Positions 5,418-47,837 of a stretch of DNA of 64,000 nucleotides are shown here, in pieces. Below the pieces are notes generated by a model that was not told where the DNA came from, did not search any database, and saw nothing but the letters and a program-made list of their open reading frames with translations. The translations under genes and the position numbers were made by a program. The stretch is from contig CAZEAY010000001.1 of assembly GCA_964510655.1 (NCBI GenBank), forward strand, positions 33,421 to 97,420, written 5' to 3'. Each line of letters begins with the position of its first letter. Within the stretch, counting starts at the first letter, position 1. This stretch comes from an uncultured Candidatus Saccharibacteria bacterium. Its GTDB lineage: Bacteria; Patescibacteriota; Minisyncoccia; Phycocordibacterales; XYD1-FULL-46-19.

Positions 5418-5672
5418 ATGGCGACAGCAAATTCAGCTTTTATGAAGCCAATGACCATCAGTGCAGAACTGGCGGAAGTTGTAGGAAAGGGTCCAATGCC
5501 TCGTTCGGAGGTGGTTAAGGCTCTTTGGGTTTATATTAAGAAGAATGATCTTCAAGACCCTAAAAACAAGCGTAATATCGTTGCCGATGCCAATTTGAAA
5601 AAAGTTTTTGGCGGTAAGGACGTTGTTAGTATGTTCGAAATGACTAAGCTTGTTTCCAAGCATTTGTCTTAA
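5418..5672 (+). CDS. SWIB/MDM2 domain protein
   Basis: 84 aa with the SWIB pattern (…RSEVVKALWVYIKKNDLQDP…IVADANLKKVFG…). Confidence 0.8.
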   Translation: MATANSAFMKPMTISAELAEVVGKGPMPRSEVVKALWVYIKKNDLQDPKNKRNIVADANLKKVFGGKDVVSMFEMTKLVSKHLS

Positions 5673-5691
5673 TTTTTTAGAGGAAATTCTT

Positions 5692-5740
5692 ATCACCCGC
5701 CAAACAAATAATTTAATTTGTTTGGCGGGTGATTTGGTTG
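5692..5740 (+). terminator. intrinsic terminator after the SWIB gene
   Basis: Hairpin atcacccgccaaacaaat…atttgtttggcgggtgat followed by a T-rich run. Confidence 0.7.
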
Positions 5741-5766
5741 TTTATATAAAGTAACTTAAAAATTAA

Positions 5767-6399
5767 ATGTCTAAGATAAATTTAATTCTTGTTCGCCATG
5801 GTAAATCGGAATGGAATGCTTTGGGTTTATGGACAGGCTTGACTGATGTTGAATTAACTGAAGAGGGACGAGAAGAGGCCCGTCGAACAGCTAGAACTTT
5901 GGAGGGCTTGGGAATTAATCAAGCTCATGTCTCTGATTTAAAAAGAGCTAAGGAAACTTTGGCTGAAATACAGAAAAGTTTGGATACTCAAGCTTGGCCA
6001 GTTAAGGTTAGTTCTAATCTGAATGAACGTGACTATGGTGTTTATACTGGTAAGAATAAATGGGAAATTCAAAAAGAAGTGGGCGAAGCTAAGTTTTTAG
6101 ATATCAGACGAGGTTGGGATTGTTCTATTCCAGAAGGTGAGACACTTAAAGATGTTTATAATCGAACCGTTCCTTATTATGAAAAAGAAATTCTTCCAGA
6201 TTTGCAGGCCGGAAAGGTTGTTTTAGTTGTAGCTCATGGAAATTCTTTGCGGGCGCTGGCTAAACACTTAGAAGGTATTTCCGACGAAGATGTTGGAAAT
6301 CTAGAAATTACGACGGGGGAAGCTTGGTGTTATTGTATCGATAGTGATGGTAAAATGTTGAGTAAGGAGGTCCGATCTGCTAACTCTAATAAAGTCTAA
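5767..6399 (+). CDS. gpmA: histidine phosphatase family, 2,3-bisphosphoglycerate-dependent phosphoglycerate mutase-like
   Basis: N-terminal LVRHGKSEWN catalytic RHG motif with the GpmA-like pattern (…TGLTDVELTEEG…). Confidence 0.7.
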   Translation: MSKINLILVRHGKSEWNALGLWTGLTDVELTEEGREEARRTARTLEGLGINQAHVSDLKRAKETLAEIQKSLDTQAWPVKVSSNLNERDYGVYTGKNKWEIQKEVGEAKFLDIRRGWDCSIPEGETLKDVYNRTVPYYEKEILPDLQAGKVVLVVAHGNSLRALAKHLEGISDEDVGNLEITTGEAWCYCIDSDGKMLSKEVRSANSNKV

Positions 6400-6400
6400 C

Positions 6401-6440
6401 CTAAACAAAAAAACCGATAACCATCGGTTTTTTTGTTTAG
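6401..6440 (+). terminator. intrinsic terminator
   Basis: aaaaaaaccgat-aacc-atcggttttttt. Confidence 0.7.
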
Positions 6441-6480
6441 GTTTTTATCCTTTTTGGTAATAGGTTATACTAGAGGTCTT

Positions 6481-8184
6481 ATGACGCAAAAAGAAGCCTT
6501 GGATATTTTAAAGATGGGTCACCATGTTTTTTTAACTGGTCCAGCTGGAAGTGGTAAGACTTATGTTTTAAATGAGTATATTAAATATCTCAAGGATCAT
6601 GAGGTAGAAGTTGGTGTCACTGCTTCAACCGGAATTGCCGCTTCTCATATGGGCGGGATGACTATTCATTCTTGGACTGGAATGGGGATTAAAGACGTCT
6701 TAAGTCCTTATGATTTAGAAGATTTAGAGGAAAAACCTTATCTGCGGAAGCGATTGGAAAAAACTAAAGTTTTGATTATTGATGAAATTTCTATGCTCCA
6801 TCATTTCCGTTTGGATATGGTGGAACAAATCATCAGGCAATTGAGAAGAAACAACGAACCTTTTGGTGGTTTGCAGGTAGTTTTTTGTGGAGATTTTTTT
6901 CAGCTCCCTCCGGTTATGAAAGGAGAGGGTCGTTTTGATGAGAACCTCTTTTATGATACTCCATGCACAAATTTTGTTTATCATTCACCTGTTTGGAAAA
7001 ATCTTGATCTGCGAATTTGCTATTTAGAAGAACAACATCGTCAAAATGATCAGTCTTATCTAGAGATTTTAAATGCGATTAGGAGCGATAAGGTTTCACC
7101 GGAAATTAGAGAAAGATTAAATTCTCGCAATAATCAAGCGATAGATCTGGATCTTGAGCCGACTAAATTATATTCCCATAATGTAAATGTTGATTTAGAA
7201 AACGATCGGGAGTTAGAAAAAATTCCGGGACAAATTTTTGAATACGGAATGATTAGTCGGGGACGAGCTCCTCTGGTGGAAACAATAAAAAAGAGTTGTC
7301 TGTCGCCAGAAATTTTACGTTTGAAAAAAGGAGCCCGGGTAATGTTTGTAAAAAATAATTTTGAATTAGGTTTTGTAAATGGCACCCTTGGAGTTGTGAC
7401 TCATTGTGATGAGAATAGTGTTACTGTGAGAACGGTGGCGGGTAAGACAATTAATGTTCCGTTGGCTTCTTGGGTAATCGAAGAAGATGGAAAAATAAAA
7501 GCGGAAATTACCCAATATCCTCTGCGTTTGGCTTGGGCGATTACGGTGCATAAAAGTCAGGGAATGAGTTTAGACGCGGCGTTGGTTGATCTGTCTCGTT
7601 CGTTTGAATCTGGTATGGGTTATGTGGCCTTATCACGAGTGCGCTCTTTAGATGGGTTATCGCTCTTGGGTTTAAATGAAAAAGCCTTAGAGGTGAATGA
7701 GGAAGTCTTGGAATATGACCAGCATTTTGCCGAGGTTAGTGAAGCGCAAGCCGAAGAGTTGAGGCATCTGCATCCGGCGACCGTGAAAGAGCGACAGAGT
7801 GCCTGGATTGAAAAAATTGCGCCGGCTGTTACCGATCGCCTAGGACGGAAGGTAAAATCTAAATCGCAAAAACTAAGCACAGTTGAAGAGACGAAAAAAA
7901 TGATTGAAGAAGGCAAGTCTTTGAAAGAGATAATTAAAGAGCGTAAATTAACTGCTGGCACAATTATTACTCACTGTGAAGAGATTAAAGAGAAGTATCG
8001 GAATTTTGATTTTCGGCCTTTCTTGAAAGCTTCTGGTTTGTCGCAGGCTCGTCAACTTAAAATCAGATTGGCTCTACTTAGAGGAGGAATGGTGGCTGGT
8101 CAATATCCTCTGACACCGGCGAAAGAAATTTTGGGTAATGGTTTTAGTTTTGATGAAATAAAGATGGTTAGATTATCTCTCTAA
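6481..8184 (+). CDS. PIF1/RecD-like ATP-dependent DNA helicase (AAA_30) with a C-terminal HTH domain
   Basis: Walker A GPAGSGKT, helicase motifs (IIDEISM, VVFCGDFFQLPPV, TVHKSQG) and a C-terminal helix-turn-helix region. Start moved to ATG 6481 because the track start at 6433 overlaps the upstream terminator. Confidence 0.7.
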   Translation: MTQKEALDILKMGHHVFLTGPAGSGKTYVLNEYIKYLKDHEVEVGVTASTGIAASHMGGMTIHSWTGMGIKDVLSPYDLEDLEEKPYLRKRLEKTKVLIIDEISMLHHFRLDMVEQIIRQLRRNNEPFGGLQVVFCGDFFQLPPVMKGEGRFDENLFYDTPCTNFVYHSPVWKNLDLRICYLEEQHRQNDQSYLEILNAIRSDKVSPEIRERLNSRNNQAIDLDLEPTKLYSHNVNVDLENDRELEKIPGQIFEYGMISRGRAPLVETIKKSCLSPEILRLKKGARVMFVKNNFELGFVNGTLGVVTHCDENSVTVRTVAGKTINVPLASWVIEEDGKIKAEITQYPLRLAWAITVHKSQGMSLDAALVDLSRSFESGMGYVALSRVRSLDGLSLLGLNEKALEVNEEVLEYDQHFAEVSEAQAEELRHLHPATVKERQSAWIEKIAPAVTDRLGRKVKSKSQKLSTVEETKKMIEEGKSLKEIIKERKLTAGTIITHCEEIKEKYRNFDFRPFLKASGLSQARQLKIRLALLRGGMVAGQYPLTPAKEILGNGFSFDEIKMVRLSL

Positions 8185-18292: not shown

Positions 18293-18300
18293 ATATTGCT

Positions 18301-18648
18301 TCCTATCTATAAGCCGAATTCTGTATCCGACCAAGGTCGGACGGCAGTTATTTATCTGGGCTGATTGTTGCCAATCAGCTCTAGCGACACGAATCGAAGG
18401 AAACCTTCGAAACACGGTCTTGCACTTAAGTAAGGGTTTAGCCGTTTCACTTCGAATGTTTCCATTCGAACTTACCCCGAAGGGTATTTTAAATCTTTCG
18501 ATTTAAAACGTCTCTGCTCGCACCTCGCGGATTGCTCCGGACGGGAATTACCCGCTACCTGGCTCCAAACTTGCGTTTGGAAGTGTTCGGACTTTCCTCT
18601 CTGACTTTCATCAGAGTAGCTGCCCAATAGGGAACTCCTTAATTATAA
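18301..18648 (-). ncRNA. rnpB: RNase P RNA (bacterial)
   Basis: The minus-strand reading contains the P4 core GAGGAAAGUCCGaac… and the 3' ACAGAAuuCGGCUUAuag element, with GC-rich stems in a region that lacks a credible ORF. Ends are approximate. Confidence 0.7.
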
Positions 18649-32425: not shown

Positions 32426-34009
32426 TTATTCCACCAAAAACTCAGATATGGTGACAGGAACGGTCATCGTAAGAGATACCGACTGACCATCAATGCTTCC
32501 GCCAATAGAGGCTGTTCCAACGTTTCCGTCGGCGGAATAAAGAGCTGATGCACTCCCACCACTCATTGTGGTTGGTGTGGACCCGAAGCTTCCGATATCG
32601 GCTGTATAGGTCAACACGGAACCAGATGGAATTGTTCCGGCGATGCTGGTGTCAGTACCGCTTGAGTTCTCCTGTAAATGGAGACTAATGGTACTGGTCT
32701 CGTTTGGCTGAATGTCTGTTGGATTAGCAGTAATCGTCGCGACAATCCAAGGGTTGGTGTTGAAGCTGACTTCAGAAACACCACAGCCACCATTGCCCGG
32801 TCCAGCATTGCAACCCCACCAGTTGTTAGTGAGATCAACATTGTAGGTCCCAGCGGTCGGGTTACCGTCAAAACTTATAGCTGATTTTTCCGTGTGAGTA
32901 GTGTTACCCACGATTCGGTTGAAATTCGCTTGCAAGTTCAAGACTTGACCCGTTTCGCTCTCAATTTCCAAAGCTACACCACAATTAAGTAGCGAGTTGT
33001 TGTTGAAGACGACAGAGGAGCGGGAACTGAAGTACCCGTATACATCAGTACTTTGGTATAGACCAATGCTCCCACTGCGATTATTGAGATCCACCACATT
33101 ACCTGTGAGGGTAATGGTAGTGGGTGCTCCCTCTCCGGCCACCCAGAAGGCGACATCCTGTTGAGTAACAGAGTTTGTCGTGACTTGAACTGGTAAGTAT
33201 GGGGCATAGACCCAGATACCATAAGCTCCAGCCGTCCCGCTAGTAACTGTGTTTTCAGTCAATAAGTCAGCTGAACCGCCGCTACTGCCGTTGTTGTCGG
33301 TATGTATTCCGCTTCCGGAAAACCCGACTACGTTGTACTTGACCACTGTTCCTTTTGAGTGATTTGAGGCGATGCTGTCATTGCATCTGGTAACCGTATT
33401 GCTGGTCACCTGTCCGCTCCCGGTGAAATTGAAAATTCCGATGGAATTTCCGTCTCCGGAAACATTGTCGACAGTATTGTTTTGGAAGTTGAAACTTCCG
33501 CCAGTTGAGGCATAAATACCACGTAGGTAGATATTCCTCACTGTGCAATTCTGGACGGTCAGATTTTGGAAGACGCCCGTCGTGTGATCAGTGATGATCC
33601 CATTACGGGCGGCCAAATCAGCTCCATTGCGGACAATTCCACTTGGAGTAAGTGCTCCTGTTGTCTGACCATCCAGACAAACACCATCAATAGTGATGTC
33701 ATTAGCCTGGATCAGAAAAATGTTGCTGGCGGCCGGACACAATGAGCTTCCACTACAGGGGTTTGGACCTGAGATCGCGGGGTAGATCATTGTTGCCCCT
33801 GACCCGTCACCCAAAAAGGTGACTCCGGGGTTGCGGGCGATCACGTTTTCTTGCCAGTTACCAGCGGGGATATGCACCGTGTCTCCTGAGCCTGAAGCGT
33901 CAGAGCATTGTTGGATGGTTCCGTCTATTCCCGCTGTGCGGGTGGTTGCGTGAACCACCTCTCCACTCATCAGCACAATGCTGAGTATCAGTAACCAGAA
34001 TGCCCTCAT
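32426..34009 (-). CDS. secreted right-handed parallel beta-helix repeat protein (pectate-lyase/NosD-like fold); GC-rich
   Basis: Signal peptide MRAFWLLILSIVLMSGEVVHA. Many PbH1-like repeats (NCTVRNIYLRGIYAS, NTVDNVSGDGNSIGIF, NTVTRCNDSIASNHS…). Strong SD (GGAGGAATGTCATG). Composition clearly GC-richer than neighbours. Confidence 0.6.
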   Translation of the reverse strand: MRAFWLLILSIVLMSGEVVHATTRTAGIDGTIQQCSDASGSGDTVHIPAGNWQENVIARNPGVTFLGDGSGATMIYPAISGPNPCSGSSLCPAASNIFLIQANDITIDGVCLDGQTTGALTPSGIVRNGADLAARNGIITDHTTGVFQNLTVQNCTVRNIYLRGIYASTGGSFNFQNNTVDNVSGDGNSIGIFNFTGSGQVTSNTVTRCNDSIASNHSKGTVVKYNVVGFSGSGIHTDNNGSSGGSADLLTENTVTSGTAGAYGIWVYAPYLPVQVTTNSVTQQDVAFWVAGEGAPTTITLTGNVVDLNNRSGSIGLYQSTDVYGYFSSRSSVVFNNNSLLNCGVALEIESETGQVLNLQANFNRIVGNTTHTEKSAISFDGNPTAGTYNVDLTNNWWGCNAGPGNGGCGVSEVSFNTNPWIVATITANPTDIQPNETSTISLHLQENSSGTDTSIAGTIPSGSVLTYTADIGSFGSTPTTMSGGSASALYSADGNVGTASIGGSIDGQSVSLTMTVPVTISEFLVE

Positions 34010-40869: not shown

Positions 40870-40918
40870 AGCAGTAGATTAGCATAAAGTGTTAAAACTG
40901 TCCAATCTTTTAAATGAA

Positions 40919-40956
40919 AAAAAGGGGGGTATCCGGCCACGGATACCCCCCTTAGA
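40919..40956. terminator. strong GC hairpin terminator
   Basis: aaaaaaa-ggggggtatccggccacggatacccccc. On the minus strand this hairpin is followed by T8, so it terminates the small ORF at 40967..41200. Confidence 0.75.
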
Positions 40957-40966
40957 GAGCATTGCT

Positions 40967-41200
40967 TCATTCTGAATCTGTCTTGGGTGGAAGGGGTTTG
41001 GCTTCGTACCCCTCACAGCGGCCTTCTCCGTCTAGACCAAATGTTTTTTGGGCGGCACAATGGCCGATTTGGTCATTGAACCTGCATCCTACCCTTTTAC
41101 AGGCTTGGGGTTCCCAACCGCGGGAAACAGGATGGCGAGATTCTCCAGGGCGACCGATCAACCCCATTGGCCCCTCAGACATTCCTCGTGTTTCTTCCAT
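40967..41200 (-). CDS. hypothetical 77-aa Cys/His-containing protein; GC-rich
   Basis: SD GAGGTG 5 nt before the ATG and a downstream terminator. Residues CKRVGC…HC…C could form a metal-binding site. GC clearly above the local background. Confidence 0.35.
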   Translation of the reverse strand: MEETRGMSEGPMGLIGRPGESRHPVSRGWEPQACKRVGCRFNDQIGHCAAQKTFGLDGEGRCEGYEAKPLPPKTDSE

Positions 41201-41297
41201 GATTCACCTCTTTTCTATTATTCAGATTAACAAAAAGAATTTAAATTAACAAACAAAATAAATTAAAAATCCCCCAAGAAATTGGGGGATTTTTAAT

Positions 41298-42626
41298 TTA
41301 TTTAATCTTCTTTAAGTACTCCGCGAGCATACTTATTTTAATAGTGTCTTGGGAACGGTTATCCATATTGCGGACAATCACAGTGCCATCGAGAGCTTCT
41401 TTTTGTCCCAGGATTAGGGTATAAGGTACCTCCATTCGCTCGGCGATTCCTAGCTGAGCCGATAAGGAATCTTTGGACATTGAGTGCACCATTGGTACCT
41501 TGGCTTTGCGCAGGGTTTCGATAATTTCAAAACATTTTAGTTTGGCGTCGAAGGAAAGTTGAATAAAGAAGACTTTTGGTTTTTTAATCAGACGAGGGGA
41601 ATGTTTGGCATAACCAGGCATTTCAATAATTCTGTCTACCCCCAAACCACCACCAACGGCCGGAATATCTTTTTTACCACCCAAAGCTTTAGATAGATAG
41701 TCATAGCGCCCGCCACCACCAAGGGCTAAATTGGAAATCGTTTTGGTGCCATCTGGATTTTCTACCTCCATATCACTAACAATTTCAAAGACAGTTCGTG
41801 AATAGTAATCCAAACCGCGGACTAGATTACTATTTATTTCATAATCAATGCCAAATTTATCTAAATATTCCAAGACTTCTTTGAAGTGGAGTTTACAAGC
41901 GGGACACAAATAACTAACCGACTCTGGGGCGCCAGCTTTCACCGCTTCGCATTGGGGGTTTTTACAATCTAATACCCGCAGAGGATTAGTTTTTAATCTT
42001 TCACGACAATCGGCGCAAATATTCTTAGCATTCTTTTTGTAGTAATTTACTAAGTCACGACGAAAAGCACCACGACATTCGGAATCACCAATACTATTTA
42101 TTTTTACCCGCAAATTTTTTAGTCCCGCTTCTTTTAAAATAATATTGAAAATATGAATAATCGTCGCATCATTAATACTTTTCGGTGATCCCAAGATCTC
42201 TAAGCCAAATTGATAGAATTGGCGATAGCGGCCTTTTTGAGGATTGTCGTGACGGAAAAATGGACCATAGTAATAGAGCATTACTGGTTGGGGAAGAGCT
42301 TGCATGCCGTTTTCTAAATAAGCGCGCATGACTGAGGCTGTTCCTTCTGGACGCATGGTCAAATGATCACCCCCTTTTGTTTTTAGAGAGTACATTTCTT
42401 TATCCACAATATCGGTCCCGGCGCCAACCCCACGGTTAAAGAGTTCTTCTTTTTCTAAGATCGGCGTTTCAATCGGTTTAAAACCATAATATATGGCCAC
42501 CTCAGCGGCTTTTTCAAAAAAACCTTGGAATAAATAAAATGAATCATCAATTAAATCTCGCATCCCTTTGGGTGATTGCAAGTCCTCTTTTTTTGCGGTC
42601 TTTTTTGTTTCTTTATTGTTTGTCAT
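41298..42626 (-). CDS. hisS: histidine--tRNA ligase
   Basis: Class II motifs and the HisRS signature (LTMRPEGTA, GGGRYD). Confidence 0.85.
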   Translation of the reverse strand: MTNNKETKKTAKKEDLQSPKGMRDLIDDSFYLFQGFFEKAAEVAIYYGFKPIETPILEKEELFNRGVGAGTDIVDKEMYSLKTKGGDHLTMRPEGTASVMRAYLENGMQALPQPVMLYYYGPFFRHDNPQKGRYRQFYQFGLEILGSPKSINDATIIHIFNIILKEAGLKNLRVKINSIGDSECRGAFRRDLVNYYKKNAKNICADCRERLKTNPLRVLDCKNPQCEAVKAGAPESVSYLCPACKLHFKEVLEYLDKFGIDYEINSNLVRGLDYYSRTVFEIVSDMEVENPDGTKTISNLALGGGGRYDYLSKALGGKKDIPAVGGGLGVDRIIEMPGYAKHSPRLIKKPKVFFIQLSFDAKLKCFEIIETLRKAKVPMVHSMSKDSLSAQLGIAERMEVPYTLILGQKEALDGTVIVRNMDNRSQDTIKISMLAEYLKKIK

Positions 42627-43508: not shown

Positions 43509-44111
43509 ATGTCATACATTTTTGTTGGTTTGGGAAATCCAGGCCCCGAATATCAAAACACTCGTCATAATACTGGACGTTTGGTGTTGGAATCTTTTTA
43601 TAAAAAAGCAGTTAAAGACAGTGACTTGTCGGACTGGAAGAGTGATAAAAAATTACTGGCTTTGAAAAGTTCTGGTAAAGTCGGAAAAGAAAGTGTTGTT
43701 TTGCTTGAGCCAGAAACGATGATGAATAATTCTGGTAAGAGCCTGAAAGATTTAGTAAATACACCTAAAAAAGCGGAAAAATTGGTGGTGATTTATGATG
43801 ACCTCGATTTACCACTAGGCACTTATAAAATTAGTTTTAATCGTGGTTCTGGCGGACATCGGGGATTGGAATCAATTATAAAAAATATTAAAACCAAAGC
43901 CTTCATTCGTATTAGAGTAGGGGTTTCTCCAGCCACTCCGTCGGGCAAACTTCGCAAGCCACAAGGAGAAGAAAAAGTGATTGATTTTATTTTGGGTAAA
44001 TTTAAATCAGCTGAAGAAGAAGAATTAAAAAAAGTCAGCAAAAAAATTACTGACGCTTTGTTTTGCCTCTTGGAAGAGGGGAAGGATATCACAATGAACC
44101 GATTCAACTAG
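43509..44111 (+). CDS. pth: peptidyl-tRNA hydrolase
   Basis: N-terminal FVGLGNPGPEYQNTRHNTG. Confidence 0.85.
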   Translation: MSYIFVGLGNPGPEYQNTRHNTGRLVLESFYKKAVKDSDLSDWKSDKKLLALKSSGKVGKESVVLLEPETMMNNSGKSLKDLVNTPKKAEKLVVIYDDLDLPLGTYKISFNRGSGGHRGLESIIKNIKTKAFIRIRVGVSPATPSGKLRKPQGEEKVIDFILGKFKSAEEEELKKVSKKITDALFCLLEEGKDITMNRFN

Positions 44112-44511
44112 AGTCTTCTAAAAAAATAAAAATAAAAAACTCCGGAGGTGGAAAGCAGGCTGGGTGCTTTCTCTCCGGAGTTTGTGGCTGTTAAGCCGGA
44201 TCGCGACAGTGTCGCATACTGTCTCCTTTCAGAGACTTGGGCTTGTCTGGACCATGGGGTTGGTTACCCAGATCTCTTTGGTCTCAGCCTCGCCGGCGTT
44301 GGGCGATCAGGCCCCGGGCGACGCCGAGCGGCCGTCGTTCGCGCTGCGGATCGTGGAAATGATGTAAATGTTGGAAAAGTGATCGGTCGTCGAACCGCGG
44401 TTGTGATTGGTAAGCATGGCTTACCCCCTTCGATTGAATGTACAAGTACCTAAAGGTACTTCTCATAGTGTAGCATACTATAGATTTTTGTCAACTACTG
44501 GATATTAAATC

Positions 44512-44553
44512 TTTCTAAAGAAAAAAGAGAACCCGGAACGATGGTCGTTCCGG
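44512..44553 (-). terminator. intrinsic terminator of the GC-rich minus-strand ORF
   Basis: Hairpin cccggaacga-tggt-cgttccggg, followed on the minus strand by a T-rich run. Confidence 0.7.
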
Positions 44554-44579
44554 GCTAGCATGGTAGATGCTGGGGGGGT

Positions 44580-45056
44580 CTATTCCCCAACATCTACGTA
44601 GGGGATTTTCTTCTTGGTGGCCGACATCAGGAAGGTTATCACGTATTTCTCAAATTGTCTGTCTACCCGCCTGGCCAAAAATAGCAGGTGTAGATGTCTG
44701 TCGGCATCGGTCCAAGTACGTGGGTGGTCCAGGAAGTAACCCTGGTGACTGGTAAGCAGGCGATCTTTGGTCATTTCGTTGGCCGTGTCACCGCCTGACC
44801 TTACTTCGCTGAGTCGTTCCAACATGTCGATCAGCATATTCAGTAGGTCCATTTGATCATGAGACCCTGTCAGCACATTCTCGTGCTTCATTGACAGCTC
44901 CAAGTAGTCAGCGGTCAGGTGTGCCAGAGAGAGATCATCATGCGAAACTTTGGTCTCTTCTTCGCCTGTAAACATCCGTAGTCGGTCTACCAGTTGTTGG
45001 GTGGTTACTGACAACATTTGCGAACCCATACCAGCTAGCACCTTCTTCATGACCAT
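44580..45056 (-). CDS. hypothetical protein, GC-rich
   Basis: 158-aa ORF with its own terminator, about 46-50% GC by eye; no motif recognised. Confidence 0.4.
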   Translation of the reverse strand: MVMKKVLAGMGSQMLSVTTQQLVDRLRMFTGEEETKVSHDDLSLAHLTADYLELSMKHENVLTGSHDQMDLLNMLIDMLERLSEVRSGGDTANEMTKDRLLTSHQGYFLDHPRTWTDADRHLHLLFLARRVDRQFEKYVITFLMSATKKKIPYVDVGE

Positions 45057-45162
45057 TTCTCCTTGTTTGCAGTGATAGTTGATCTATCCCGCTGTTAGTC
45101 TTTTTTCATAATAACAGATAAATTGATTGGTGTCAATTTGATGGAAAATTATCTGACAAATA

Positions 45163-45192
45163 GAAAAACCGCCCAAAAGGGCGGTTTTTCTA
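45163..45192. terminator. terminator downstream of rpsA
   Basis: aaaaaccgcccaaaagggcggttttt. Confidence 0.75.
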
Positions 45193-45223
45193 TTATTCTA
45201 CATTCTCTATATTCTTTAATCTT

Positions 45224-46393
45224 TTATTCTGCCTTCACTTCCTCTTTCTTGTTTGGATCTTGGAAGTTCAACGTCATGCGTTGTTCCTTGGCCTCAAAAA
45301 GATTGATGGTAAAGGAATAGGTTTTGCCGAGTTCCAATTTTCCGCGCAAATCTTCTTCCGATTTGAATTCCGAAATGTGGACTAAACCAGCTACACCTTC
45401 TTCAATGGAAACCAAAGCGCCATGCTTGTTGTACTTAATGATTACACCCTTTACCGTGTCACCCTTCTTGTACTTCTTAGCCGCTTCGTTCCATGGGTTT
45501 TCTTTCAAAGCTTTGAGAGACAAAGAGATTTTTCCATCCTTGATTTCAATCACTTTAGCTTTTACCTTGTCGCCAACCTTGAAGAGCTCTTTAGGGTTTT
45601 CTACTAAGGCCCAGTCAATTTCGGAAATGTGTACCAATCCTTCCAAACCTTCTTCTACTTTAATAAAGATACCAAAGTCTACGGCGCCAGTGACTTCACC
45701 TTCTACCACGTCACCAACGACATATTTCTCTACAATTTCCTTTTTAGATTTATTGTCGGAATTCTTTTCGGAGAAAATCAGTTTACCTTCTTTAGGATCA
45801 GCCCCAATGATCGACATGGCCATGCGGGTGCCCACAAACTTGCGAAGTTCTTCCATAATGCGATCTTTGTCACCGTCCAAAACTCTTGGATAGTGCTCAG
45901 GCTTAAGCTGAGATGATGGTAAGAAACCATCGATACCTTGCCATTCGACAATCAAACCACCTTTGTTGGCATCTTTGACCAACAATTCCATCACCGTTTT
46001 TTGTTTAATGGCTTTTTCGGCTTCGCTCCAGATGATAGCGGTCTTGGCTTCCTTTAGGGAAAGTTCAATATAGCCATTTTCCCCTTCCGACTCTACGACT
46101 TTGGCGGTCACACTGTCGCCAATGTTCACTTTTTTAATAATATCCTTAGCATTCAAAAATTCTCGGCCAAAGATAATACCAGTACCAAAAGGCACGATGT
46201 CTATATATAGAGCCATCTTGTCTTTGCCAATTACAGCTCCTTCTACCAAAGCCCCTGGCTCTGGACGACTGGCGGTAGCCTTTAAGATATCTTCCATCGC
46301 CCCCTTAGCTTCTTCGGCTTTGGTTGTATCTTTAGTTTCTTCCTCCATATCTTCTGCTACGATTTTTTTTACTTTTTTAGTTGTTTCTGTCAT
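45224..46393 (-). CDS. rpsA: 30S ribosomal protein S1 (short, about four S1 domains)
   Basis: Repeated S1-domain pattern (G.xVxGxVxxIxxFGxFVxl…GLxHISE). Confidence 0.8.
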   Translation of the reverse strand: MTETTKKVKKIVAEDMEEETKDTTKAEEAKGAMEDILKATASRPEPGALVEGAVIGKDKMALYIDIVPFGTGIIFGREFLNAKDIIKKVNIGDSVTAKVVESEGENGYIELSLKEAKTAIIWSEAEKAIKQKTVMELLVKDANKGGLIVEWQGIDGFLPSSQLKPEHYPRVLDGDKDRIMEELRKFVGTRMAMSIIGADPKEGKLIFSEKNSDNKSKKEIVEKYVVGDVVEGEVTGAVDFGIFIKVEEGLEGLVHISEIDWALVENPKELFKVGDKVKAKVIEIKDGKISLSLKALKENPWNEAAKKYKKGDTVKGVIIKYNKHGALVSIEEGVAGLVHISEFKSEEDLRGKLELGKTYSFTINLFEAKEQRMTLNFQDPNKKEEVKAE

Positions 46394-46673: not shown

Positions 46674-47837
46674 ATGAAATACACAGTTGGAAAGAAAATA
46701 AAAGCGACTAGTCCTCAAGGAGAGGCGTATTTGGCGTTTTTACCCGAACTAATAAATAAGGATTTTACTTGGGAGGATAAAAAAATAGATATACTGCTAG
46801 AGTCCGCTCGTGGCTGGCTTGGTGAACTAAATGCTTACTCGAAATTAATTCCTAACGTCGATTTTTTTATAGAGTCACATATCGCAAAAGAAGCAGAACA
46901 GTCTAGTCGAATTGAGGGGACAAAAACCACACTAGAAGAACTCTATCTTGATAAGGGTGATTTTGATGATCAGGAAAAAATAAATGATCAGGAAGAAGTG
47001 AAGAACTATATTAATGCATTAAATTATTCTATAAAAAATATTACAACTCCTGGCGAGATTCCACTTTCTACAAGACTTGTTTGTGGTGCTCATAAAATTT
47101 TACTTGATAATGTTCGAGGATATAAACGTCACCCTGGTGAGATAAGAAAAATACAAAATAAAATTGGAGGAAGCCAGGGTTCTCTTAAAGATGCTATCTT
47201 TATTCCTCCAACCCCAGAAATGGTTTCTGATCTTTTGAATGATTTGGAAAAATTTTGGCACAATAAAAATCTTGAAATTCCAGATCTGATAAAAGTCGCA
47301 TTGTCACATTATCAATTCGAAACAATACACCCATTTGAAGACGGAAATGGGAGAATCGGTCGTTTGATAATTATATTGCAACTCGTAACGTATGGGATGC
47401 TACAGAAACCAACATTGTACCTCTCTGATTATTTTGAGAAAAATAGATCGGCTTATTATGATGCTCTTTCTCGCGTACGAGAATCTGGGGACATGGAACA
47501 TTGGATAAAATTTTTCCTTGTTGGTGTCACTGAAACGGCCAAAAAAGGAAAAGAAACGTTAGAAAGTATCATTGATTTAAAAAAGAAATACGAAGATCTA
47601 ATCGATGGATATATGGGAGTTAAACAACAAAAACTTGGTAAGAAGTTGTTAAAATTCCTGTTTGCTAAGCCATTAGTAACAGCAAAAGATGTTGAGCAAA
47701 TGCTTGGAGTTACGAAACCAACAGCCACTGCTCTTGTAAACAAGCTGGCAGAAGCAAATATTTTAAAGGAGAGAACTGGATATAAAAGAAATCGAGTTTA
47801 TGCGCTCGATGAGTATTTAGCATTATTCAATAGTTAA
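46674..47837 (+). CDS. fic: Fic family protein (AMPylase-type), with an N-terminal domain and a C-terminal wHTH
   Basis: Canonical Fic motif HPFEDGNGRIGR and a candidate inhibitory SxxxEG motif (SSRIEG) in the N-terminal region. Confidence 0.85.
   Translation: MKYTVGKKIKATSPQGEAYLAFLPELINKDFTWEDKKIDILLESARGWLGELNAYSKLIPNVDFFIESHIAKEAEQSSRIEGTKTTLEELYLDKGDFDDQEKINDQEEVKNYINALNYSIKNITTPGEIPLSTRLVCGAHKILLDNVRGYKRHPGEIRKIQNKIGGSQGSLKDAIFIPPTPEMVSDLLNDLEKFWHNKNLEIPDLIKVALSHYQFETIHPFEDGNGRIGRLIIILQLVTYGMLQKPTLYLSDYFEKNRSAYYDALSRVRESGDMEHWIKFFLVGVTETAKKGKETLESIIDLKKKYEDLIDGYMGVKQQKLGKKLLKFLFAKPLVTAKDVEQMLGVTKPTATALVNKLAEANILKERTGYKRNRVYALDEYLALFNS

Follow-up and report, generated by a model that had tools for sequence, protein, structure and literature searches.

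Flexible genomic islets, horizontal-transfer hot spots situated between core genes, are a general concept of comparative genomics, and bidirectional intrinsic terminators are known between convergent genes. Dual-function small RNAs (sRNAs), which also encode a small peptide, include SgrS/SgrT, SR1/SR1P and RNAIII/delta-haemolysin. In this study we analysed a 64,000-nt stretch of DNA (39.1% GC; contig CAZEAY010000001.1 of an uncultured Candidatus Saccharibacteria bacterium), hereafter the window, in which an islet of about 1.1 kb separates the genes pth and rpsA; coordinates are those of the window unless another locus is named. As to GC-rich intergenic regions, a survey by the Breaker laboratory listed 3 short open reading frame (sORF) and 10 sRNA candidates in 4714 regions, which makes such candidates rare (PMC11109978). 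In the literature we found no described equivalent of the islet specific to Patescibacteria.

We propose, with a probability of about 0.6, that the islet is a flexible, strain-variable insertion spot with two separately transcribed, lineage-restricted genes and no known structured RNA. The space between pth and rpsA would be a hot spot where related Patescibacteria gain, lose and swap accessory DNA, and two monocistronic units would be transcribed in the rpsA direction. Unit 1 would run from a promoter at 45136..45108 through the gene of a 156-aa protein to a terminator at 44556..44530. Unit 2 would run from a promoter at 44494..44467 through an RNA of about 330 nt, with a 5′ hairpin and a small open reading frame (ORF), pep1, in its 5′ half, to a nested hairpin that would also stop pth transcription from the opposite side. 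Turnover of the islet would most likely proceed by homologous recombination in the conserved flanks, a route we favour since insertions are tolerated where two 3′ ends converge. These steps of transcription, translation and recombination are predicted from the observed signals, synteny, variability, composition and homology. The islet is of an ordinary accessory kind, with no unusual mechanism in evidence; strain-specific accessory or conflict functions are our best guess for its products, made with low confidence.

Around the islet, the genes are arranged in the order hisS (-), lepB (-), pth (+, 43509-44111), the 1.1-kb gap and rpsA (-, 45224-46393). A preliminary description of the window, made from its letters alone, had named pth and rpsA as the housekeeping flanks, and Pfam identified both (Pept_tRNA_hydro, E 8e-51, for pth; four S1 domains, E 2e-41, for rpsA). 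As the two genes are convergent, the gap is bounded by two 3′ ends. The genome is of Patescibacteria/Parcubacteria type, and the nearest public relatives of Pth are metagenome-assembled genomes labelled Lloydbacteria, Parcubacteria or Paceibacterota.

The synteny comparison suggested in the preliminary description was carried out on eleven distinct close relatives (Pth 70-88% identical) from Logan, ENA and JGI assemblies, ten of them with a measurable gap. All keep the pth/rpsA pair, and the gap between the two genes is hypervariable, ranging from 65 bp to 4447 bp. In order of size it measures 65 bp in L089, 243 bp in L172, 579 bp in L094, 1013 bp in L092, 1088 bp in L174, 1142 bp in the window, 1246 bp in L084, 1545 bp in L087, 2570 bp in L095, 2906 bp in L081 and 4447 bp in L086 (the handles denote loci of the relatives); in L170 the contig ends 739 bp beyond pth. 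Thus, conserved flanks enclose differing contents even in close relatives, and the conservation of the segment at uniform composition, which the preliminary description had named as refuting its reading, was not seen. The contents are mostly non-homologous: in an all-against-all blastp of the gap open frames, just two pairs shared proteins, the window with L081 and L087 with L092. In build the gaps of the relatives are alike: short units follow one another on the strand of rpsA, each led by a TTGAC(A/T) promoter and closed by an intrinsic terminator, and their GC content mostly exceeds that of the host. Among distant relatives, some have a gap of 14-126 bp and others one of 0.4-3.3 kb, and the convergent arrangement of pth and rpsA is widely conserved.

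The closest comparison is provided by L081 and L082, two independent Logan assemblies of a sister genome whose identity to the window is 98% for RpsA, 92% for HisS, 88% for Pth and 81% for LepB. There the order rpsA, homologue of the 156-aa protein gene, pep1 unit, pth recurs, with other DNA on either side of the pep1 unit, and this recurrence in both assemblies ruled out misassembly or a chimera. In a tree of RpsA, Pth and LepB combined, pep1 carriers stand on separated branches with non-carriers in between.

The islet also differs from its flanks in composition. GC content at 44200-44399 is 0.595 vs. 0.391 across the window, and 44101-44400 is the highest-GC 300-bp bin in all 64 kb (0.543), in agreement with the roughly 300 bp of GC-rich sequence noted at the outset. 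The contrast with the flanks extends to the codon level: GC content at third codon positions (GC3) of the 156-aa protein gene, called ORF158 after its longest open frame, is 0.586 vs. 0.35 +/- 0.057 (maximum 0.508) in 33 long ORFs of the window (z about +4), and in L081 the islet ORFs have a GC3 of 0.60-0.65 vs. 0.43-0.48 for the host genes. Third positions of ORF158 diverge by 65% between the window and L081, compared with 37% for rpsA and 47% for pth, at 36% amino acid identity of the ORF158 products. Since this divergence exceeds that of the flanks, the islet alleles are older than the flanks, which is what exchange of the islet by recombination, and not simply rapid evolution at the site, would produce. 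GC3, third-position divergence and the patchy tree distribution all give the islet a composition or history different from that of the flanks. The acquired cassette of the preliminary description thus finds support in spirit, by the hypervariable gap, the atypical GC3 and the third positions, but it comes without mobility genes or repeats.

Several other origins were considered and dropped. Searches of phage, plasmid and IMG/VR collections gave no relative, the single DNA match being a 30-nt chance hit, so a phage or plasmid origin of the islet was abandoned. An integron cassette was rejected on inspection by eye, as the hairpins are without RYYYAAC / GTTRRRY ends, the units have their own promoters and no integrase occurs in the fetched flanks. 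A diversity-generating retroelement or retron was likewise discarded: no reverse transcriptase in the flanks, no pair of template and variable repeats, and an own promoter for each unit.

All expression signals of the islet are read on the minus strand, the strand of rpsA. Unit 1 and the rpsA terminator that borders it comprise the following features:

45159..45194, strand not assigned, rpsA terminator: perfect 16-nt palindrome AAUAGAAAAACCGCCC / GGGCGGUUUUUCUAUU; left edge of the islet, read in transcript orientation
45108..45136, minus strand, predicted unit 1 promoter: TTGACA, 17-nt spacer, TGtTATTAT; 11/12 matches with TG
44580..45050 (ORF to 45056), minus strand, ORF158 protein gene: 156 aa from the ATG at 45050, AAGGAG 8 nt upstream
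44530..44556, minus strand, predicted intrinsic terminator of the ORF158 gene: cccggaacga / tcgttccggg, then CUCUUUUUUC

The unit 1 promoter region is 74% identical to its counterpart in L081, where TTGACA-17-TGcTACTGT can be seen. Downstream of the gene, the terminator has 12 pairs (7 G-C) followed by a T-run (-19.8 kcal/mol, z -5.6). The rpsA terminator, which folds with -27 kcal/mol (z -8.2), is retained in relatives. The earlier claim of a 158-aa minus-strand ORF with its own terminator is therefore borne out in both parts, with a small, probable correction of length. The ATG at 45056 that gives 158 aa stands only 2 nt past the Shine-Dalgarno sequence, and the database protein P0001 is identical to the 156-aa version with the same start at 45050, which is the likely start. 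The codon profile is GC1 0.57, GC2 0.33 and GC3 0.59, with GC1 above GC2, and the product is acidic and predicted to be all-helical and cytoplasmic.

In a word-indexed search of 5.8 billion clusters the ORF158 protein matched itself only. Exhaustive phmmer against 1.84 billion representatives yielded a single real homologue, P0002 (146 aa, at 36% identity; E 1.1e-13), whose gene lies directly downstream of rpsA in L081/L082, at the equivalent locus; a C-terminal block, L.LLFL.R.VDR.FEKY, is conserved between the two proteins. A second match, P0003, was judged spurious, as it is a 760-aa repeat protein in unrelated context with 45 residues matched (E 8e-5). A profile built from P0001 and P0002 brought in no further members. 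Because the sister-genome assemblies have the homologue at the equivalent locus, ORF158 is taken as a real gene, with a predicted promoter and terminator of its own. Significant homology and shared synteny join P0001 and P0002 in a previously unrecognised, uncharacterised family of two known members of 146-156 aa. Hence, the ORF is an orphan to the extent that a single homologue was found, but not in the strict sense. No clear protein family accounts for it: nothing matched in NCBIfam, PADLOC, PHROGs or a profile search of the PDB, and Pfam gave a sub-threshold match to DUF1688 (E 0.023). The AlphaFold2 (AF2) model from the two-sequence alignment is all-helical but of low confidence (predicted local distance difference test, pLDDT, 55), and Foldseek found no match to it in the PDB at E<=0.001.

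The preliminary description had offered a toxin or immunity-like gene. In its fuller form, ORF158 and unit 2 would be a toxin-antitoxin or toxin-immunity pair, the peptide or RNA neutralising the protein or the reverse. Two small adjacent genes inside a variable islet would suit such a pair, and conflict-type genes (Fic, PemK, GHKL ATPase) in variable spots of the window and relatives give it circumstantial support. Yet a terminator and a promoter separate ORF158 from unit 2, which are thus not predicted to form a co-transcribed operon. The two are also not inherited together: L087, L092 and L174 have a pep1 unit but no ORF158 homologue, and in L081 a 193-aa gene sits between the ORF158 homologue and the pep1 unit. 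No product of the pair was matched in PADLOC, Pfam, NCBIfam, PHROGs or PDB, and searches of the first four of these libraries with P0001 and P0002 gave no toxin, antitoxin or defence match. The pep1 product is not hydrophobic, unlike type I toxins. Finally, the best pairing between the unit 2 RNA and the ORF158 mRNA, a 17-nt stretch with 82% complementarity, is no better than chance and has not been kept in L081. We regard a pair of this kind as highly improbable, and the searches lend the toxin or immunity label no support.

Genes of conflict type were seen at two other places. Upstream of rpsA, at 46674-47837 (+) of the window, lies a 387-aa ORF with a Fic active-site motif, HPFEDGNGRIGR, and the same position holds HTH_17 and Fic in L084, PemK in L087 and Band_7 in L089; with such differing genes, that side also looks like a variable spot. 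The pth-rpsA gap of L086 encodes, at 5533-7248 (-), a 571-aa protein with HATPase_c_3 (GHKL; E 2e-15) and, in PADLOC, weak similarity to TmtA (E 4e-8) and MzaB (E 5e-5), followed by three orphan frames (ORFans) of 215, 150 and 167 aa. The GHKL gene and these ORFans may be a defence cassette.

Unit 2 occupies the GC-rich part of the islet, and its transcript ends are placed from sequence. Its features are:

44467..44494, minus strand, predicted sigma-70-type promoter: TTGACA, 16-nt spacer, TGcTACACT (extended -10); 10/12 matches with TG
44125..44460, minus strand, predicted GC-rich transcript of about 330 nt, from a putative start ~7 nt downstream of the -10 box as far as the U-tract
44444..44461, minus strand, 5′-proximal hairpin: AGUACC-UUUA-GGUACU; -8.1 kcal/mol, z -2.3 to -3.1
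44307..44417, minus strand, small ORF pep1: 36 codons and stop, MLTNHNRGSTTDHFSNIYIISTIRSANDGRSASPGA; Shine-Dalgarno GGGGG at 44424-44428, 6 nt before the ATG
44246..44274, minus strand, remnant of a second mini-ORF, pep2: aligns with GATGAAAGTCACC... (MKV[TA][TA]L) of L081, L087 and L092
44191..44217, minus strand, unrelated 8-codon ORF MRHCRDPA behind AAGGAG: of doubtful significance, not conserved in relatives
44137..44183, both strands, nested hairpin: predicted bidirectional intrinsic terminator closing unit 2 (-) and pth (+)

A nhmmer profile found unit 2 homologues at L081 2716-3000, L087/88/91 8067-7703 and L092/93 7508-7192, all at the pth-rpsA locus. A fifth, more diverged member in L174 is known by its anatomy and motif (same promoter, hairpin, GAGGAGG, ATG). 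In the four relatives the unit always stands just downstream of rpsA, and no further copies were found outside the pth-rpsA gap in the window or in 170+ fetched loci. The elements TTGACAAA and TGnTA are invariant and at fixed spacing in 5/5 homologous units. The relatives have an equivalent of the 5′-proximal hairpin that differs in sequence; it reaches significance in L081 (z -4.0) and in L174 (z -2.2) and is weak in L087 and L092, so that three of the five members have it at significance.

In all five units a Shine-Dalgarno sequence precedes an in-frame ATG by 5-10 nt, which agrees with the start expected of an sORF (PMC11109978). The pep1 products of the relatives are MHNHHIRGSTMNFNIFIQLKHRRATTA in L081, MSQNAKIRGAPVVINYQEFSMFSCEA in L174, MRHNQTRGSTNRTASRACMNYLFTSANCATTG... 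in L087 and MSFQLQNKGSTSPALPRACMNYLFTSASSATTG... in L092, and share with that of the window the motif M-x(3-8)-[RK]-G-[SA]-[TP]...N-[IY]. When 1.58 Mb were scanned on both strands for a Shine-Dalgarno sequence, M, 3-8 residues and [RK]G[SA][TP] in an ORF of <=61 aa, exactly these five matches were obtained. The conserved Arg/Lys codon of the motif varies (CGC, CGG, CGT, AGA, AAG), as does that of the adjoining Gly (GGT, GGT, GGG, GGA, GGA), and in-frame GC3 of pep1 is 0.76-0.89 in the four members measured (window, L081, L087, L092). This is a clade-restricted, previously unrecognised peptide/RNA family of five members with 26-49 aa. We think that pep1 is translated into a small peptide with a conserved N-terminus (M..N..[RK]G[ST/AP], then N[IY]) and a variable C-terminus.

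L081, L087 and L092 also share the pep2 mini-ORF led by a Shine-Dalgarno sequence (MKV[TA][TA]L...), of which the window has lost the start (ATG changed to ATC) and the Shine-Dalgarno, with the nucleotides still alignable. Two longer frames were rejected as genes. A 60-aa minus-strand ORF (44466..44284) has its ATG directly adjoining the -10 box, and its frame ends early in L087. The 101-aa plus-strand ORF (44148..44453), already called unconvincing in the preliminary description, is antisense to all signals, has no Pfam match and shows its lowest GC at the third codon position (0.69/0.54/0.46 at the three positions). The statement that the 300 bp hold no convincing ORF stands for the plus strand; the minus strand holds the Shine-Dalgarno-led, 36-codon pep1.

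Separate from these, in three relatives (L081 3150-3215, L087 7395-7330, L092 ~6950-6880) the first unit ends in a long G-rich hairpin, after which come CCGACCAACC and the terminator; base changes between L081 and L087/L092 are compensatory in the hairpin stem. Window unit 2 (44262-44251) and L084 (~7455-7440) contain a related 12-mer, AACCAACCCCAT.

The nested hairpin behind pth was confirmed. Its arms are ctccggag (44140-47), ggaaagca (44150-57), tgctttc (44165-71) and ctccggag (44173-80), and the outer arms, 44137-47 and 44173-83, are 11 nt long and 100% complementary. It folds with -28.3 kcal/mol on the plus strand and -25.8 on the minus strand (z = -5.8 and -6.6), a stability equalled by 0/200 shuffles. 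A simple terminator scan missed it because of its interior loop. On the minus strand it is followed by the tail U6AU5AU7 (plus coordinates 44120-44139), UUUUUUAUUUUUAUUUUUUU; the tail on the pth (+) side, UUUGUGG, is weaker. A stable G+C-rich hairpin with a U-tract immediately after it is thus present at 44137-44183 (-), 44530-44556 and 45159-45194, which are predicted intrinsic terminators by sequence and folding. What had been described as an unusual hairpin is on this evidence best taken as the ordinary, shared terminator of two putative convergent transcripts.

Some results weigh against the proposal of an insertion spot with two expressed genes. The promoter-like elements across the wider region number 6, vs. 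7.1 in shuffles, and the promoters are therefore called by their position and conservation. The gap contained no ORF for an integrase or transposase, and neither flanking direct repeats above chance nor att sites were found. As for pep1, the members differ in length (26-49 aa) and at the C-terminus, and the member in L174 was recognised by eye and the motif then relaxed, so L174 is not an independent test of the motif scan. Between L087 and L092 the pep1 codons show 1 synonymous and 16 non-synonymous changes, with no signature of purifying selection. In the last 33 well-aligned codons the differences by codon position are 2/4/1; that is, 1/33 third positions differ vs. 32% in the flanking genes (P = 5e-5). 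The third-position pattern points to nucleotide-level constraint or recent exchange and not to ordinary protein constraint. Along the L087/L092 alignment, blocks of 93-95% identity, one of them about 110 nt long and so conserved at all codon positions, alternate with unalignable stretches, which looks like selective nucleotide constraint rather than a single recent transfer.

This pattern bears on the claim of the preliminary description that a structured non-coding RNA lies at 44150-44520. A discrete unit is indeed present there, on the minus strand, and it could be read as an sRNA (44460->44125, -) in which the small ORF is incidental. The unit is the GC-richest stretch of the window and has its own conserved promoter, 5′ hairpin and terminator. 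In the folding analysis that had been suggested for the segment, the predicted transcript folds better than shuffles as a whole (minimum free energy -118.7 kcal/mol, z -4.6), partly owing to its two terminal hairpins; the roughly 120 nt of GC-rich sequence between the pep1 stop and the nested hairpin do so as well (121 nt, z -3.1). The near-identical L087/L092 block, the lack of an excess of synonymous changes in pep1 and the loss of the pep2 start codon from nucleotides that still align would fit an RNA too.

The search for a known RNA, however, was negative. The suggested Rfam scan of 44185-44560 on both strands, with families including tmRNA, SRP RNA, 6S, RNase P, riboswitches, HEARO, ROOL, GOLLD and raiA, gave no match at E<=10, with sub-threshold terminator look-alikes over the hairpin only; five related loci gave nothing at E<=0.05, and ARAGORN found no tRNA or tmRNA in the islet. 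The RNAalifold consensus of four unit 2 sequences is weak (-5.1 kcal/mol), with a covariation term of +1.3, a penalty from few sequences, and the term for the three longer homologues is likewise a penalty, +9.5 kcal/mol. Structure recurs across the members only in the 5′ hairpin and the terminators (five members, too few for statistics), and L081 does not retain the CGGTT/GACCG hairpin, the sole local one of the conserved block. Against an incidental ORF stand the Shine-Dalgarno sequence, ATG and in-frame motif kept in five lineages with wobble variation at Arg-Gly, and a GC3 that is strongly periodic in the four measured members. We hold it somewhat more probable than not that unit 2 is an sORF-bearing transcript that may also act as an RNA, and find a purely non-coding RNA unlikely by comparison.

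The unit 2 RNA itself may carry a second, nucleotide-level function. Taken further, the space downstream of rpsA could be an array of promoter-hairpin-body-terminator minigenes, and the pep1 unit, as founding member, a clade-specific RNA of dual function (RNA and peptide) or a structured one. This idea draws on the third-position divergence of 3% vs. 32% together with the retained peptide N-terminus; we consider it distinctly unlikely. If true, the islet would hold a regulatory RNA/peptide system and a new RNA class and not passive cargo.

At the other extreme, the GC-rich segment might be a decaying, non-functional remnant of inserted DNA, with ORF158 or nothing at all functional. Gap contents turn over fast, unit 2 of the window is the shortest of its family and has lost pep2, and pep1 carries no purifying-selection signal; outside a few blocks, the units of the window and L081 are about as similar as neutral divergence allows. 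Decay of this kind would nevertheless not be expected to leave the promoter hexamers, extended -10, Shine-Dalgarno, ATG, open frame and a GG(T/A)TCGACGA block in place where synonymous sites have diverged by ~30-47%. The strong unit 2 terminator is intact, and conserved blocks alternating with unalignable stretches in L087/L092 are not what uniform decay gives. A mere remnant thus appears quite improbable, and the reading as an insertion spot with two separately transcribed genes is preferred.

Further observations were made at the same spot and elsewhere. In L174 (3749-6603) pth is inverted relative to all other relatives, so that rpsA, gap, pth, lepB and hisS lie on one strand, and the 1.1-kb gap with its pep1-type unit is retained despite the inversion. 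The 1.2-kb gap of L084 (6604-7834, -) has no called genes and consists of three consecutive promoter-to-terminator units of ~200-450 nt, the first with a Shine-Dalgarno-led 49-aa ORF unrelated to pep1. A second GC-rich patch of the window (0.50-0.56), at 40915-41215 (-) between hisS and a 78-aa S21-like ORF, is islet-like in build: the hisS terminator (41256-41303), a Shine-Dalgarno-led 77-aa ORF of no obvious family (41200..40967) and a strong terminator at 40953..40922 (14 pairs and T-run). It has no Rfam match at gathering threshold, and relatives have different ORFs of 101-165 aa there. The long ORF with the most atypical composition in the window, 527 aa at 32426-34009 (-), has GC2 0.51 and GC3 0.51 in a region of GC 0.47-0.54 and may be another acquired gene. 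Bacterial RNase P RNA of class A was found at 18294-18635 (-) (123.6 bits, E 2e-37), without part of the P12 region, and seven tRNA genes occur elsewhere in the window.

Taken together, the GC-rich "non-coding island" is resolved into two predicted minus-strand transcription units and a shared terminator, and the 101-aa plus-strand ORF should not be annotated. A hot spot, probably one of recombination, is documented between convergent housekeeping genes in the ultra-small genomes of Patescibacteria. Since little is known of the accessory genes of these bacteria, strain-specific functions in interaction or defence are a candidate role for such islets.

Compared with the systems described before, the nested hairpin resembles bidirectional terminators in being G+C-rich, with flanking A- and T-tracts on opposite sides, and in separating convergent 3′ ends. 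It differs from typical ones by its nested stem with an interior loop, its overall length of 47 nt and a U-tract that is strong for the minus-strand unit only. Unit 2 is like the candidates of the GC-rich intergenic region survey (PMC11109978) in that it is a long intergenic stretch of high GC content within an AT-rich genome. The sORF definition of that survey applies to it in part, as it has a conserved start and no position from which to regulate a main ORF; unlike the sORFs listed there, its stop position is not conserved and its conservation pattern is not clearly coding.

In anatomy only, unit 2 is comparable to dual-function sRNAs: a stand-alone transcript of 200-500 nt is predicted, with promoter and intrinsic terminator, a 26-49-codon ORF in part of it, a structured remainder and signals of both coding and nucleotide-level constraint. 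In contrast to them, it has no target complementarity with the ORF158 mRNA, no similarity in sequence or Rfam, and is known here from sequence alone. The islet as a whole is closest to flexible genomic islets, with which it shares fixed core flanks (pth and rpsA), variable content, atypical composition, ORFans and, in some relatives, genes of conflict type. Unlike typical islets it is tiny (1.1 kb, two minigenes) and without integrase, tRNA or flanking repeats, and every pth-rpsA unit has its own consensus promoter and terminator, all in the same orientation.

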